DNA from: Eledone cirrhosa
Lineage: Eukaryota
Length of the DNA stretch: 64,000 bases
NCBI GenBank assembly: GCA_964016885.1
Contig: OZ024745.1
Location: 72,540,001 to 72,604,000 of the forward strand
Direction: 5' to 3'
The notes beneath the pieces are model-generated. The model worked only from the letters and a program-made list of their open reading frames with translations. It had not been told where the DNA came from and made no database searches. Positions 8,552 to 62,290 of this stretch are shown here, piece after piece (the first letter of the stretch is position 1; each line of letters opens with the position of its first letter). Made by a program: the position numbers and the translations under genes.

Positions 8552-8602
8552 AGTTTAAGCACAGAATCGCTGCTTTCACCCTTAACAGGATCTTCTGAAA
8601 CT
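8552..8602 (-). ncRNA. Hammerhead-like motif, CAGAAGA core variant (family F2)
   Basis: Minus strand AGTTT CAGAAGA TCCT GTTAA GGGT GAAA GCA GCGATTCTG TGC TT AAACT; same fold at 26750-26800, 31591-31641 and 62216-62266. Confidence 0.6.
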
Positions 8603-9367
8603 AAAAAAATCAATCTGTGAACGCAGAAGTATATATATTGAAAAACGTTGCAATCGAAGTAAAACAGGAAGACGATACTTTGGTTCGTGGAAACGTTCAC
8701 TGGCAAAGAACGGAAAAACGAAGATATACGCCATTATTTGGAGCGGTGAAAAACAATTACACGCAAAGACAAAACCACATCCTCATAAACTTTTCCAACA
8801 GTTTATATATGCCAATGGAGAAGGAAAGAATGTCTGCGATCTATTTGGGGTCATTCATAAAACAGTTACCTGGAGTGTGTAGATGCAAGCTTCTAGCTCC
8901 ATGGAGGAGATTCTGTTCCCTTTATTTGTCGCAGTTTGTTGCCTTTTAATATTTTTTCGACGATGAGTATTTAGTCTCTCGTTCATTTAACTACTTGGGT
9001 CTCAGGTAGAATCCGGAGGGCATTCTACGTTTATGTGACAAAGTTGGGCCTTGGATTTACAGATAAAATCCATCCGATGGACTTACAAACAGTTTTCGTC
9101 TATCTAGTTTCACACACAAAAATAGGAAGGATCTGAATCTATTGTAAAGACGCTTGCAATGGATCGAATCCAGGGCCTCATCATTAGACGCGAATTTTTT
9201 TTATCACTCAGCCATGATCGTGTCTAAATTTATATAATAAACATTTTATAAATAGAGGACATGATGGTCGATTGGGCCGAAGAAATTATTAGGATTCCTT
9301 GGATTCTTGCTATTACTATGAATTCCATTCGTCTAGCACTTTATTTTTGTATGTATACACATGTGAA

Positions 9368-9633
9368 TGGAGGCACGTAGTCTAGTGGTAAGGGTGTTGG
9401 ACTTACGATCATAATGTCGTGGGTTCGATTCCTGGGTTGAGCAAAACACTTCATTTAACGTTGCTCCAGTATACTCAGCTGAAAATGAGTACCGGCAATA
9501 TCTGGAGGTTTAACCCTGTGATGAACTGGAGTCCTGTTCAGGGGAGAGTCTTGTACTCTCAGTCGCTTCATGCCATGAAACCGAGATAAGCACCGGCCAA
9601 ATGAGCCTTCTGGCTCAAGACAGACTTTAAACT
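9368..9633 (+). mobile_element. tRNA-derived SINE family S2
   Basis: A/B-box head (TAGTCTAGTGG...GGTTCGATTCC) and a body matching the copy at 34112-34399. Confidence 0.8.
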
Positions 9634-9646
9634 AAGATATATATGT

Positions 9647-9890
9647 GAAGGCGCGTTGCTTTGTGGTTAGGGTATTCGGTTGACGTAAGGCTGTGAGTTC
9701 GGTTGTGTCCTTGAGCGTTGTGTCCGTCAGCAAGACACTTTATTTCATGTTACTCCAATCCACTCAGCTGGCAAAAATGTGTTGGATCTGTAGTTCGAAT
9801 GCTCAGCCTTGTCACATTCTGTGTCACTGTGAATATCCTCTGAGAACTACGTTAAGAGTACACGTATCTGTGGAATGCTCAGCCGCTTGT
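9647..9890 (+). mobile_element. tRNA-derived SINE family S3
   Basis: tRNA-like head; TGAGAACTACGTTAAGAGTACACG tail shared with 10230-10400 and 14900-15250. Confidence 0.65.
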
Positions 9891-57659: not shown

Positions 57660-58340
57660 GACAGAGAGAGAGAGAGTGTGGGGGAGAAGGAGAGACGGGG
57701 AGAGAGAGCGATTAAGAGAGAGGGGGTGGGAGAGAGAGAGTGAGTGAGTGAGAATGAGAGAGGAGAGGGAGAGAGAGAGACAGACAGAGAGACAGAGTTA
57801 GAGAAAGAGAGACATAGAGAGAGAGAGAGAGTGTGGGGGAGAAGGAGAGACGGGGAGAGAGATTAAGAGAGAGAGAGGAGTGGGAGAGAGAGAGAGAGAG
57901 AGTGAGAGAGATTAAGAGAGAGGGGGTGGGAGAGAGAGAGAGAGAGTGAGTGAGTGAGAATGAGAGAGGGAGAGAGAGAGACAGACAGAGAGACAGAGTT
58001 AGAGAAAGAGAGACAGAGAGAGAGAGAGAGAGAGTGTGTGGGGGAGAAGGAGAGACGGGGAGAGAGATTAAGAGGGAGAGAGGAGTGGGAGAGAGAGAGA
58101 GAGTGAGTGAGAATGGGAGAGGAGAGAGAGGGAGAGAGATTAAGAGAGAGGGGGTGGGAGAGAGAGTGTGAGTGAGTGAGAATGAGAGAGGAGAGAGAGA
58201 GAGAGAGACAGACAGAGAGACAGAGAGAGAGAAAGAGAGAGAGAGAGAGACAGAGACAGAGAGATGCAGAGAGAGACAAAGACAGAGAGATGCAGAGAGA
58301 GAGAGAGAGAGAGAGAGAGAGAGAGAGAGAGAGAGAGATA
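57660..58340. repeat. (GA)n-derived compound minisatellite
   Basis: Recurrent GATTAAGAGAGAGGGGGTGGGAGAG and GAGTGAGAATGAGAGAG units. Confidence 0.9.
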
Positions 58341-61271
58341 CACTGCGTATGTTGTTTATTTTTCAGAGTTGAAATAATTACAAAGTGAGAAAAAGGAGAC
58401 TAGGGTGGAGTATAGAAGCAATGGGATAAAAAGGAAAAACAAAGACGTTAGACTGAGATGATGGGAGAGAGAGAGGGAAAATATAAGAAAAAGAAAGAGA
58501 GATAACAATAGGTTATGATCGAGAGCTTTTCATTATTTATTATTCCCGAAATTTTCAGGGTGGGTTTCTATGAAGTTATTCCCATATAATTTTACACCTA
58601 CATTACTTCACACACGATTGGGTATCTACACAAATATATATACACACGCACACACACGTATATATATACATATATATCTATATATATATACATATATACA
58701 TATATATATATATATATATATATATATATATATATATATATATATATATATATATATATATATAATGTATATATATTTACGTTTGTTCTCAAAGTAGTAA
58801 GTCTTGTACATCTATTTGTGTGTGTATGTGTACGTATATATATACATATATATATTTATATTTATATATATATATACATATATACACACACACATATATA
58901 TATATATTAAATATATATATATATATATATATATATATATATATATATATATATATATATGAATATATATATGAATATATAATATATATATAATATATTT
59001 ATAATATATATATATATATAATATATATATAATATATATATAATATATATATAATATATATATATATATATAATATATATATAATATATATATATATATA
59101 TATATATATATATATATATATATATATAATATATATATATATGAATATATATATATATATATATATATATATATATATATATATATGAATATATATGTAT
59201 ATATATATATATTTACATATGTGTATATATGTGTACATATGTGTATATGTACATTCATAATAGCATTATAGTTTATATGAATATGCGTATTGAGAAAAGA
59301 AAAAAAGTAAACAAGAACTATAGCAAGTAGGGAAGGGAAAGAGATAATAATAGTGGCTGAGGGTTGCATTATCATCGCTTTGTATATACATTTTCTGCTT
59401 CTCCAATGAAATACGGATGCGTATAGAGAAAGGTCAATTGTCGTCAAATATAGTCTGTCCCTTGGTTTGTCAAATACATAGTATGTTTGCAGACCGCCTG
59501 CATGGCTTTACTGTATGTTGTATTCTGTCAAAACTTTATCACCAACAACAGCAGCAGCAGTAACAACAGAAACAATACATTATAATAGAAGAGAGTAGAA
59601 GAGAGAGAGAGAGAGAGAGAGAGAGTGAGTGTGTGGAAGAGACAGAAAGAGCGATAGAGAGAGACGAAGAAGAGTAGCAGTGAGTGTCGTCTGGTACGAT
59701 TGACGTAGAGGAAAATGATACTTGAAGTGGTTAGCTGTTTTATCTTTTTGCCGGGCGGAACATTATCTCTGTGGAATAGTATTATACCAAGGAACTTGAA
59801 TGAAAATGAATTCCATGGGCACTTCCGGTAAGGAAACAAAAAAAATATGCAAGAATTTTATATTATAATTATAACTGAAGATCTATCAGATTGGAAGTTT
59901 ATTTAAATATGTGCATATGTGTAAAATGAATTAGAGAAAAGAAAATGACGAGTGAAGGAGGAAGGAGGGCGTTAGAAATTGCCATAAAACAGAGAGAGAG
60001 AGAGAGAGAGAGGGAGAGAGAGAGATTTGTTATTGTGTTTTTGTGTCGTCTGGTGAAAGAAGTTTCATTCACAACTAATAATTGATGTGACATTAATGAA
60101 TGGAATTGACAAAAAAATGTAAGGGGAATAAAAGGAGTAGAAGGGCAGATATTTAAAATGAGAGGGAGTATAGAAGGGGACGAAGGTTCAAATAAGGGGC
60201 ATATATTAGAAAGGCCAAGCTTAACATGAAGATTAAATAGAAAACAAACAAAATAATTGGGTAATATAAGAGAAAGCCATAACAGTGACTAAACACAACA
60301 AAAATACAGGAAAAGAAGGGAAGGGAGAGAGGAAGGGAAATTGGGCGAGAGGGATGTGTGTTGTTTATTCTCTGATCTACCATTACTTTTGCAGCATAGA
60401 GTTACGCCCCTTTATGATCTGAGTTCAAATCCCGCCGAGGTTAACTTTGCCTTTCATCCTTACGGGGTTGATAAAATAAAGTACCAGTAATGTACTGGGA
60501 TATTTGCTGGCCTTGTGCCAAAAGTAGAAATAATTATTTACATATATAGTAGTTGTTATTTTTTATTCGTTGGCAGCATGACTCAAAGTATAACAATATA
60601 GTATATAACTTTGATATCTTCGATAGGTTTCGGCCAGAATTAGCCCAGGCCATGTCTAACTTAATAGCACCACCTGGCAAAAAGGAACAGATTTTTATAA
60701 ACATCATAATCACTTTTAAACTAATATGCATATCAATGCATCTACATATATGCTAACACACACACACGCATATACTCATACACATATATATGTATTTACA
60801 GAGGCATATATATATAAATACATATATGGATATGTTAGTATATTACATATTATATACATGTGTGACGCGCGCGCGCGTGTGCGTGCATATCTTCATCCTC
60901 GTAAGTCTGAAACTAATAAGATTGTGTTTTTGCATCCCTGTATTTGTGTTGCCACCATTTCTTTAACTATATATATAGAGAGAAAGAGAGAGAGAGAGAG
61001 AGAAAGAGAAAGAAAGAAAGAGAGAGAGATGTAAAATCCCAACCGCGGCACCAACCAGTTCCGGCTTGTCTCAGCATCTCCCCTTGCATTGAGAACCCCC
61101 ATGATTGGTGGTCTCCCCAATATCAACACCACAGCCTCTCTCTCTCTCTCTATCTATCTCCCCCCCCTCTCTCCCTCTCTCCCTCTCTCTGTATATATAT
61201 ATATAGTTAAACAAATAAAACAAAACAAACCAAGGGATGCAAAAAACACAAAGCCTTGTTAGAATCGCATC

Positions 61272-62105
61272 TAATATATATATATATATATATATATATA
61301 TATATATATATATATATATATATGTATGTATGTATGTATGTATGTATGTATGTATGTATGTATATATATGTATATATATATATGTATATATATGTATATA
61401 TATGTATATATATATGTATATATATGTATATATATGTATATATATATATATATATATATATATATATATATATGTATATATATATGTATATATATATGTA
61501 TATATATATGTATATATATATGTATATATATATGTATATATATATGTATATATATATGTATATATATATGTATATATATATGTATATATATATGTATGTA
61601 TATATGTATATATATATGTATGTATATATGTATGTATATATGTATGTATATATGTATATATATGTATATATATATGTATATATCTATATATATAGGTATA
61701 TGTATGTATATATATATATATGCATATATATATGTATATATATATGTATATATATATGTATATATATATGTATATATGCATATATATATGTATATATACA
61801 TGTATATATGCATATATATATGTATATATATATGTATATATGTATGTATATATGCATATATATATGTATATATATGTATATATGCATATATATATGTATA
61901 TATAAATGTGTATATGCATATATATGTATATATATATATGTATATATATATATATATATATATATATATATATGTATATATATATGTATATATATATATA
62001 TATATATATATATATATATATATATATATATATATATATATGTATATATATATATGTATATGTATATATATGTATATATAAATAATATATATATATATAT
62101 ATATA
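61272..62105. repeat. (TA)n/(TATG)n microsatellite
   Basis: Directly visible. Confidence 0.95.
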
Positions 62106-62290
62106 GTAGTAATAATAAATTTGAAGACTAAAATCCAAAGAGGGCTCGATAAGGATAACTATATATCAAATATATAAGAACCGTAGAGCAAATATATATT
62201 AAAATAACAGATTAAAGTTTAAGCAAAGAATCGTTGCTTTCACCCTTAACGGGATCTTCTGAAACTAACTTAATCTTCTGAAACTAAATT
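62105..62290 (-). mobile_element. Family F2 element with HHR-like motif at 62216-62266
   Basis: Minus strand AGTTT CAGAAGA TCCC GTTAA GGGT GAAA GCA ACGATTCTT TGC TT AAACT. Confidence 0.7.

Follow-up and report, generated by a model that had tools for sequence, protein, structure and literature searches.

The 64,000-nt stretch of Eledone cirrhosa DNA analyzed here (OZ024745.1:72,540,001–72,604,000; the window), from an assembly of 3.0 Gb, carries many mobile elements that contain hammerhead ribozyme motifs and are inserted in (TA)n repeats. They comprise the 3' ends of Penelope-like elements (PLEs), tandem repeats that fit non-LTR retrozymes, and short families without an open reading frame (ORF). 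In insertions made of two head-to-head arms, one arm almost always ends at a long and the other at a short 3' end, and this one-long-one-short rule likely records how the elements are copied into DNA. We consider it reasonably probable that a PLE protein, with reverse transcriptase (RT) and GIY-YIG endonuclease (EN) activities, nicks both strands of (TA)n and starts two cDNAs, each from its own fixed site downstream of the ribozyme. The links to PLE coding sequence, the (TA)n association, the two 3' ends, the pairing rule, the reading through the predicted ribozyme cleavage site and a tail hairpin were observed in the sequence itself.

Two 3' ends, 26–90 nt apart, are found in every family with enough copies. 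Counted from the cleavage site, they lie at +38/+119 in family G, +29/+119 in D, +45/+135 in I, +80/+142 in F, +20/+88 in C, +57/+137 in B and +142/+168 in A3 (the families are described below). G, D, I and C have long and short arms in about equal numbers, and in F and B the long ones are more frequent; the short ends lie in TA-rich sequence. Head-to-head arms joined within 60 nt were counted in G, D, I, F, C and B after removal of duplicate loci. The pairs comprise 91 long+short, 1 short+short and no long+long combinations, with 8 unclassifiable, so that 91 of 92 classifiable pairs follow the rule; in the evenly sampled stretches alone, the figure is 28/28. Twenty long+short pairs of family H were dropped, being an artefact of an H reference that contains an inverted arm. 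Direct reading of A3 gave long+short in 17 of 19 pairs; it replaced BLAST end-calling for the A families (13 long+long vs 7 long+short), where alignments ran on into TA-like sequence. A family-blind test on 65 TA-flanked inverted pairs found 49 asymmetric, 6 symmetric and 10 other.

The inner parts of the arms are less regular. Arm starts lie within 15 nt of each other in 45/91 pairs, the short arm reaches further 5' in 33 and the long arm in 13, and in 14 pairs the arms do not overlap. Because of the 33 pairs with a further-reaching short arm and the 14 without overlap, copying from a single cDNA does not suffice unless a deletion followed. Junctions between arms are mostly overlaps or gaps of −12 to +30 nt. 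Joins between different families are rare (4, three of them long+long, vs 145 same-family calls that include 21 H artefacts). Among the evenly sampled arms, some of H counted twice, 153/177 span the cleavage site and only 4/177 start within 5 nt of it. The idea that cDNA ends coincide with the cleavage site, prompted by the A1 copy at 21348 and the A3 copy at 50173, was rejected on this count.

At least four of the families in the window, D, F, G and I, are not retrozyme-like but 5'-truncated 3' ends of protein-coding PLEs from at least two clades, as judged from their continuation upstream into PLE coding sequence. The GIY-YIG remnant that it had noticed does belong to a PLE, namely family G. 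Thirty genomic copies of G extend upstream into a single RT-EN reading frame, with a 585-aa open stretch from RT to a C-terminal GIY-YIG in loci L037/L290 and 2336 nt from ATG to 3' end in L291, that is, an element below 3 kb. Its motifs comprise RWR (a conservative variant of RWK, in L291), DKT, YRDD, CSCRKPEAC (CxCX5C), CVLC/CGLC (CxxC) and CPH (CxH); no CCHH was seen by eye on the translation. With its canonical hammerhead and (TA)n insertion, G is, by the motif definition of Craig et al. (2021, PMC8557442), a Hydra-clade PLE. Pfam recognised none of the PLE proteins, and the RT and EN of G were assigned from motifs. The 3' ends of D and I are each joined, in at least two independent loci, to a Hydra-type endonuclease 0.9–1.2 kb upstream; in D it lies ~900 nt upstream (L064/L195/L074, 96% over 1431 nt), and the I loci are 77–80% identical in two blocks. 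Both endonucleases give tblastn identities of 31–35% to that of G and have the CxCX5C linker; overall, the Hydra-type lineages have diverged from G to 30–55% identity. Family F has a different GIY-YIG ~1 kb upstream, with motifs that resemble those of CCHH-bearing clades (a clade label given by eye).

A hairpin of the form RCTC...GAGY marks the tails of many families: RCTC begins about −2 to +11 nt from the short end, and GAGY closes it 11–38 nt later. It occurs in the long copies of G (11/15), D (16/21, as a compensatory GCTC/GAGC), I (4/4), B (10/10), C (46/51), E (9/9), H (24/29), M-like elements (2/2) and one further family (1/1), against a background rate of 1.4%. It is missing from F (0/22), A3 (0/14) and a family with a CTAG loop (0/22), and no A2 copy qualified for the test. 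The CTAG-loop family lies outside the window; it occurs in tandem (L217:599–1107, minus strand), every unit having a (TA)n tract of its own. Wherever the clade of a family has been established, hairpin presence follows the Hydra/non-Hydra split. This pattern suggests that C, B, E, H and M either derive from Hydra elements or depend on them, and that a different PLE serves the A retrozymes. The hairpin is likely the binding or priming signal of the Hydra protein, as judged from this distribution.

Families A1–A3, the only tandem ones in the window, fit non-LTR retrozymes in their organization: ORF-less tandem units of 310–318 nt with one type I hammerhead each, within the usual ~170–400 nt. A2 forms 310-bp arrays of 2 to ~20 units at 99–100% identity on many chromosomes (best 150 of 244 matches). 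A3 is a 318-nt monomer in partial tandems, and A1 is a related family. The left arm of the window A2 array is long-ended and the right arm short-ended, both at (TA)n. The A2 and A3 hammerheads would release monomers that circularise; a 340-nt A2 contig in three runs of unknown kind fits a circle and a tandem array equally, and was not used. A further abundant PLE lineage (L045:1–492, L120:4640–5131, L232, L243, L283) has a different GIY-YIG, ends at (TA)n and carries a minimal-type hammerhead-like motif near its 3' end. It is a candidate partner of the A retrozymes.

Family C is young, its top 40 matches being 99–100% identical genome-wide. Its arms mostly start near −42 relative to the cleavage site, on the first base of stem I, giving a ~145-nt element. 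Longer copies show CCAAT-, CACCC- and TATA-like boxes upstream, followed by simple repeats; the TATA-like box lies ~30 nt before an initiator-like CCAG(A/C)TT at the start of stem I, outside the common short form. From their arrangement, we infer that these boxes are a promoter. No ORF and no second same-strand ribozyme core was found in 30 long loci, and a rare short tandem joint was seen in contigs of one run. C is therefore described, on its sequence organization, as a short non-tandem element and is not classed as a retrozyme. A tandem or coding parent was sought in the same 30 loci and rejected, the upstream sequence being non-coding and running into simple repeats. A C ribozyme lacking stem I was likewise rejected; GATTC pairs with GAATC after a longer stem III. 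A young subfamily of B also has a near-fixed 5' end, with 13/14 second arms starting at query base 1–3.

The copies of these families in the window are as follows.
8527–8778, minus strand: D, 5'-truncated Hydra-type PLE 3' end, hammerhead core CAGAAGA at 8597, short end at (TA)n.
19722–19765, minus strand: C tail-only arm, joined head to head to a B arm (one of the 4 mixed-family joins).
19770–20038, plus strand: B copy with a long 3' end; hammerhead from 19841, stem II mutated.
20087–20304, head to head: C, short arm 20087–20151 (minus) and long arm 20163–20304 (plus), stem I from 20168.
20361–20811, minus strand: E copy, hammerhead 20595–20511 with branched stem II and ACTCGAGT stem III; tail hairpin; no linked ORF.
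20860–21348, minus strand: A1, partial tandem of ~317-nt period, core TTGATAA (U3-A8) at 21063, 5' end approximately at the cleavage site.
23762–25856, head to head: A2, young 310-bp retrozyme-like array, 1.5 units (minus) against 5.3 identical units (plus).
26166–26360, head to head: H fragment with tail hairpin; further H pieces at 32198–32332 and 45644–45762.
26703–26828, plus strand: D copy, short 3' end.
31222–31367, minus strand: J, TA-embedded piece with CTGATGA...GAAA and an unconvincing stem I; no copies in 600 kb.
31442–31665, head to head: D pair with non-overlapping arms, a tail-only long arm (minus) and a short-ended arm (plus).
31685–31970, minus strand: F, non-Hydra PLE 3' end, core TTGAAAA (U3-A8), ACCGGT stem III, no RCTC/GAGY hairpin.
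40329–40480, minus strand: I, Hydra-type PLE 3' end, hammerhead from 40434; loop III is TGCGCA in relatives.
45960–46149, plus strand: M copy, hammerhead from 46052; a short interspersed nuclear element (SINE) interrupts its 3' side.
46359–47664, head to head: G, long-ended arm 46359–46913 (minus) and short-ended arm 46900–47664 (plus), the latter with the GIY-YIG remnant (46921–47424) and a hammerhead (47597–47632), both on the plus strand.
47735–48184, head to head: B, short arm (minus) and long arm (plus), hammerhead from 47988; 99%-identical young subfamily.
49264–49452, head to head: small G insertion, tail arm and hammerhead arm.
49520–49650, plus strand: C, older decayed insertion.
49769–50343, head to head: A3, 318-nt monomer, hammerhead 49941–49896 (minus), short end left and long end right.
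50818–50925, plus strand: H hammerhead from 50831, core TTGAAAA (U3-A8), long stem II, 4-bp stem III.
62106–62296, minus strand: D, long-ended arm, hammerhead core at 62261.

Five different elements are nested between 19678 and 21756 with TA runs between them, which suggests that TA tracts bordering older insertions were themselves targeted again and again. A young repeat at 21350–21690 (mean identity 96%, 10 loci in 600 kb) abuts A1 there at its 5' end.

All 12 positions at which the sequence-only reading had placed hammerheads are the low-coordinate ends of type I hammerhead-like motifs, with the core CUGANGA/GAAA/UH and stems I–III in type I order. The relaxed descriptor used here specifies a core of CNGANGA or TTGANAA, stem I of at least 4 bp, GAAA, stem III of at least 2 bp and UH, and allows the first pair of stem II to mismatch. 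The complete fold claimed for each position is present in eight window copies, which pass the descriptor: 8552 (D, minus), 20168 (C), 20511 (E, minus), 21023 (A1, minus), 24441 (A2, five units and one inverted), 47597 (G), 47988 (B) and 49896 (A3, minus). At the other four, 19841 (B), 31823 (F), 46052 (M) and 50831 (H), only family relatives elsewhere pass. Family I (40434, minus) is an additional hammerhead family. The palindromic loop III described as usual is found in A1, A2, A3, B, E, F, G and I. Stem III is longer in C, D and M, where it is not palindromic, and the GAGCTC palindrome of H is present but sits in the loop of a 4-bp stem. Core variants comprise U4A in D (CAGAAGA in the copy at 8552), U3-A8 for C3-G8 in A1, F and H, and, in most families, a mismatched basal pair in stem II; the core of E is CCGATGA in the window and CTGATGA in most relatives. 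A U3-A8 pair is tolerated in hammerheads. The 3-8 pair has been demonstrated by C3G/G8C rescue (PMC11167929). In silico folding of stem III segments gave self-duplexes and no hairpin. Cleavage is predicted for the hammerheads, in most cases by dimers that pair through the palindromic stem III, and PMC4209133 and the review PMC6765202 support such dimer action.

The descriptor found 16 matches in the window, far above the mean of 0.075 (maximum 1) obtained when the dinucleotides were shuffled locally 40 times. In another 600 kb from other parts of the genome it found 60, vs 0.67 in 6 shuffles. Both results are as the sequence-only reading would require. Four decoy descriptors gave no match in the window and 0–2 in 600 kb. 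Two stricter descriptors found only 7 and 5 matches because they disallow the stem II base mismatch or the U3-A8 core. The Rfam search proposed as a check returned nothing in the window at gathering thresholds, and at E≤10 the best 150 of 366 rows held no hammerhead, only miRNA matches driven by microsatellites. According to PMC4209133, short variants of this kind are normally detected with descriptors.

A wider sample of 119 stretches of 10 kb at round-number positions (1.19 Mb) held 113 motifs, after nine matches in one 32-bp satellite (L084) had been excluded from 122. They form 33 sequence clusters, whose stems vary while the core is retained, and occur in 52/119 stretches (~95/Mb); the sample leans toward the four largest contigs (78 matches in 750 kb, 35 in 440 kb elsewhere). 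Extrapolated from 1.19 Mb to 3.0 Gb, this density gives an estimate of ~280,000 intact-looking motifs. The stem/loop III is self-complementary in 77 of the 113. The association with (TA)n holds genome-wide: (TA)5 lies within 250 nt downstream of 82/110 motifs, compared with 13.9% of random non-repeat positions, and upstream of only 19/51 motifs (first 600 kb). The high density had been presented as a property of the window. The window does exceed the sampled average ~2.6-fold (16 per 64 kb vs 95/Mb), largely through one array that supplies 6 of the 16, but the motifs are abundant throughout the genome. The earlier suggestion of a large (TA)n-associated radiation of hammerhead retroelements is supported, and these elements have the insertion anatomy of PLEs.

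In the mechanism that we favor, a TA repeat would be nicked on both strands by the PLE RT/GIY-YIG protein. A single ribonucleoprotein, in which the protein is probably dimeric and the RNA probably one molecule, would use each priming site once, and the two cDNAs would stop independently and be joined head to head through short microhomology. The template for most insertions is likely uncleaved or multimeric RNA. RNAs of C, B, E, H and M-like elements would use the hairpin signal of the Hydra protein, and A1–A3, which lack it, likely depend on a different PLE. In vitro, a PLE protein, modelled as a dimer, nicks and extends both strands of AT-rich DNA, and reverse transcription starts at two internal sites bounding the tail without requiring ribozyme cleavage (PMC11167929). 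Several points weigh against this mechanism. No strand difference in start sites was seen in that work, which thus leaves the once-each rule unexplained. Many loci were picked by similarity to window copies and are biased to young, long arms. The mixed-family joins suggest either the occasional use of two RNAs or rearrangement at a later time. If an unstable palindrome lost sequence on one side, its arms could look as though they did not overlap, and the TA-like short ends could mark endonuclease resolution in place of priming. Common ancestry could account for the hairpin even if it has no function, and B, E, H and M could be the ends of long PLE untranslated regions (UTRs). A fully intact G ORF was not confirmed, few matches being stop-free over the 585-aa query, and no autonomous partner was found for C, for the A families (in the loci sampled) or, coding or otherwise, for B, E, H and M.

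The same elements and enzyme might instead produce the inverted arm by self-priming fold-back of one cDNA, or from an antisense template, with the endonuclease cutting the hairpin intermediate at an internal TA-like site that becomes the short end. Self-priming has been proposed in PMC3846280 and EN-mediated resolution in PMC8557442. Fold-back alone predicts one tailed and one untailed arm and so accounts for the pairing rule; the centres within 15 nt in 45/91 pairs, which are a further point against two-site priming, and the TA-rich short ends fit it as well. We nevertheless regard it as unlikely: 33/91 short arms hold 5' sequence missing from the long arm, so that neither arm contains the other, these and the 14 pairs without overlap need an extra one-sided deletion, and two-site priming has been seen directly for a PLE in vitro (PMC11167929). 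Spread of the tandem and short families through ribozyme rolling-circle RNA and an unrelated enzyme of a long interspersed nuclear element (LINE), or through DNA recombination, with mere retention in TA-rich DNA, is improbable. A2 arrays of ~100% identity and up to ~20 units are what rolling-circle copying or unequal crossover gives, and the window contains many pieces of LINEs and SINEs. However, A2 and A3 have two 3' ends, head-to-head arms and the long+short rule like the protein-coding PLEs, and a ~185-bp SINE used as a control (72 loci in 600 kb) has (TA)5 nearby in 13/72 loci, compared with 12/12 for C and 9/9 for B. It is most improbable of all that the motifs have no ribozyme role and are chance matches or decayed, inactive relics within AT-rich repeats. 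The blank Rfam result, the many deviant cores (U4A in D, T.T or A.C at the stem II base in most), the rarity of the active shape among minimum free energy folds and the cleavage of only 1 of 9 predicted Xenopus retrozymes, reported in a preprint (bioRxiv 10.64898/2026.07.22.740005), point that way. Against it stand the excess over shuffled and decoy counts in 600 kb and the core kept across 33 clusters with differing stems. The U3-A8 replacements in A1, F and H also speak against it, as does loop III, which stays palindromic while changing from TATATA in B to TGCGCA in the relative I. Stem I of C covaries between A-U and C-G in 3/6 informative copies, a small and related set whose score 18/500 shuffles reach.

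The window has a GC content of 34%, and (TA)6+ runs make up 7.5% of it, compared with 4.1% of 600 kb from other parts of the genome. Its remainder holds several other features.
2966–5400, minus strand: broken LINE-type reverse transcriptase (Pfam RVT_1, domain 2969–4719) with long TA tracts on both sides.
11380–11569, 16216–16410, 35915–36110, 46150–46340 and others: copies of the ~185-bp SINE, presumably octopod.
12044–12413 and 15343–16170: purine-rich, degenerate 71-bp tandem repeat.
40863–41168, plus strand: ADAMTS-like exon with weak Pfam Adt-1 and ADAMTS_CR_2 matches.
6371–6609 and 25905–26140 (K), 45377–45588 (Lx), 6851–7578 (N), 29975–31201 (O): TA-embedded repeats without a descriptor match, one with 116-bp direct repeats, one a 643-bp tandem pair, and two short families.
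Given the ADAMTS-like exon, a large part of the window may be intronic. K, Lx, N and O are possibly the ends of hammerhead-less or further-truncated PLEs.

The elements themselves belong to known classes, and earlier publications already describe hammerheads in PLEs, (TA)n targeting by Hydra elements and the derivation of retrozymes from PLEs. G shares with the Hydra-clade PLEs of Craig et al. (2021, PMC8557442) the single RT ORF with C-terminal GIY-YIG, DKT, CxCX5C and length below 3 kb, and also the canonical hammerhead, the (TA)n insertion and the tandem or inverted insertions with a tail at one end. By contrast, that clade has RWK where the one G copy read has RWR, its few families outside cnidarians compare with several diverged lineages at high copy number here, and its tails measure 30–40 nt against 80–90 nt here, where 3' UTRs reach ~1.2 kb. 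Neither the tail hairpin nor a strict arm rule appears in the accessible text of that paper, whose supplementary Hydra consensus files could already hold related families. The PAc/Poseidon element of Anolis (Frangieh et al. 2024, PMC11167929) likewise shows two internal RT starts bounding the tail, nicking and extension of both strands, AT-rich targets and dispensable ribozyme cleavage. It belongs to a different clade, and G has its hammerhead and both of its ends within the 3' UTR and not over the ORF start; no arm-pairing rule was reported for PAc/Poseidon.

As far as the accessible text of the two reports goes, metazoan non-LTR retrozymes (Cervera & de la Pena 2020, PMC7229834; Li, Clavereau & Pollet 2026, bioRxiv 10.64898/2026.07.22.740005) resemble A1–A3 in being AT-rich, ORF-less tandem units that coexist with PLEs. 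In the same text, dependence on PLEs is deduced from joint occurrence and from the similarity of pLTRs, and no cephalopod is sampled. A1–A3 carry the PLE insertion signature directly, with two 3' ends, head-to-head arms and a (TA)n target; their U.U at the stem II base is that of axolotl HHR_Amex2. Non-LTR retrozymes are also characterised by self-cleavage and by accumulation as circular RNA. Like C, the non-autonomous Chlamys elements such as MRC1 (PMC8557442) and the SINE-like hammerhead repeats of Schistosoma (PMC6765202) are ORF-less, short and of high copy number, and in the accessible passages they have 3' features in common with autonomous elements, or a promoter followed by a hammerhead. 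C differs in its ~145-nt length, in the absence of tandem cores from 30 long loci, in mostly starting at stem I and in a TATA/initiator-like promoter that lies outside the common short form. A repeat annotation of Octopus vulgaris lists recently active Penelope families and, in its accessible part, does not mention ribozymes (PMC13282606). A full-text literature search, excluding subscription papers, Repbase and supplements, returned no cephalopod hammerhead elements, no counted arm-pairing rule and no RCTC...GAGY hairpin.

The present analysis adds a rule of insertion backed by counts, the finding that retrozymes follow it too, and the tail hairpin. It also supplies three small substrates for experiments, namely the Hydra PLE of ~2.3 kb, the ~145-nt passenger and the 310-bp retrozyme with its near-identical copies. 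These bear on how PLEs make one-tailed head-to-head insertions and on which enzyme moves animal retrozymes. The abundance of the motif lets "often at one end" become a counted rule that is common to retrozymes, and the shared hairpin offers a direct mutational test of trans-mobilisation. A fuller version of the mechanism, which we put forward tentatively as possible more than probable, holds that one complex starts both cDNAs, one on each nicked strand, from two fixed sites of a single RNA that has not been cleaved, and that the hairpin between these sites is a Hydra recognition signal borrowed by minimal passengers, down to a ~145-nt ribozyme-plus-tail RNA made from an external TATA promoter. 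If true, it would explain both the inverted insertions and the tails of PLEs, and would define what makes an RNA mobilisable by them.

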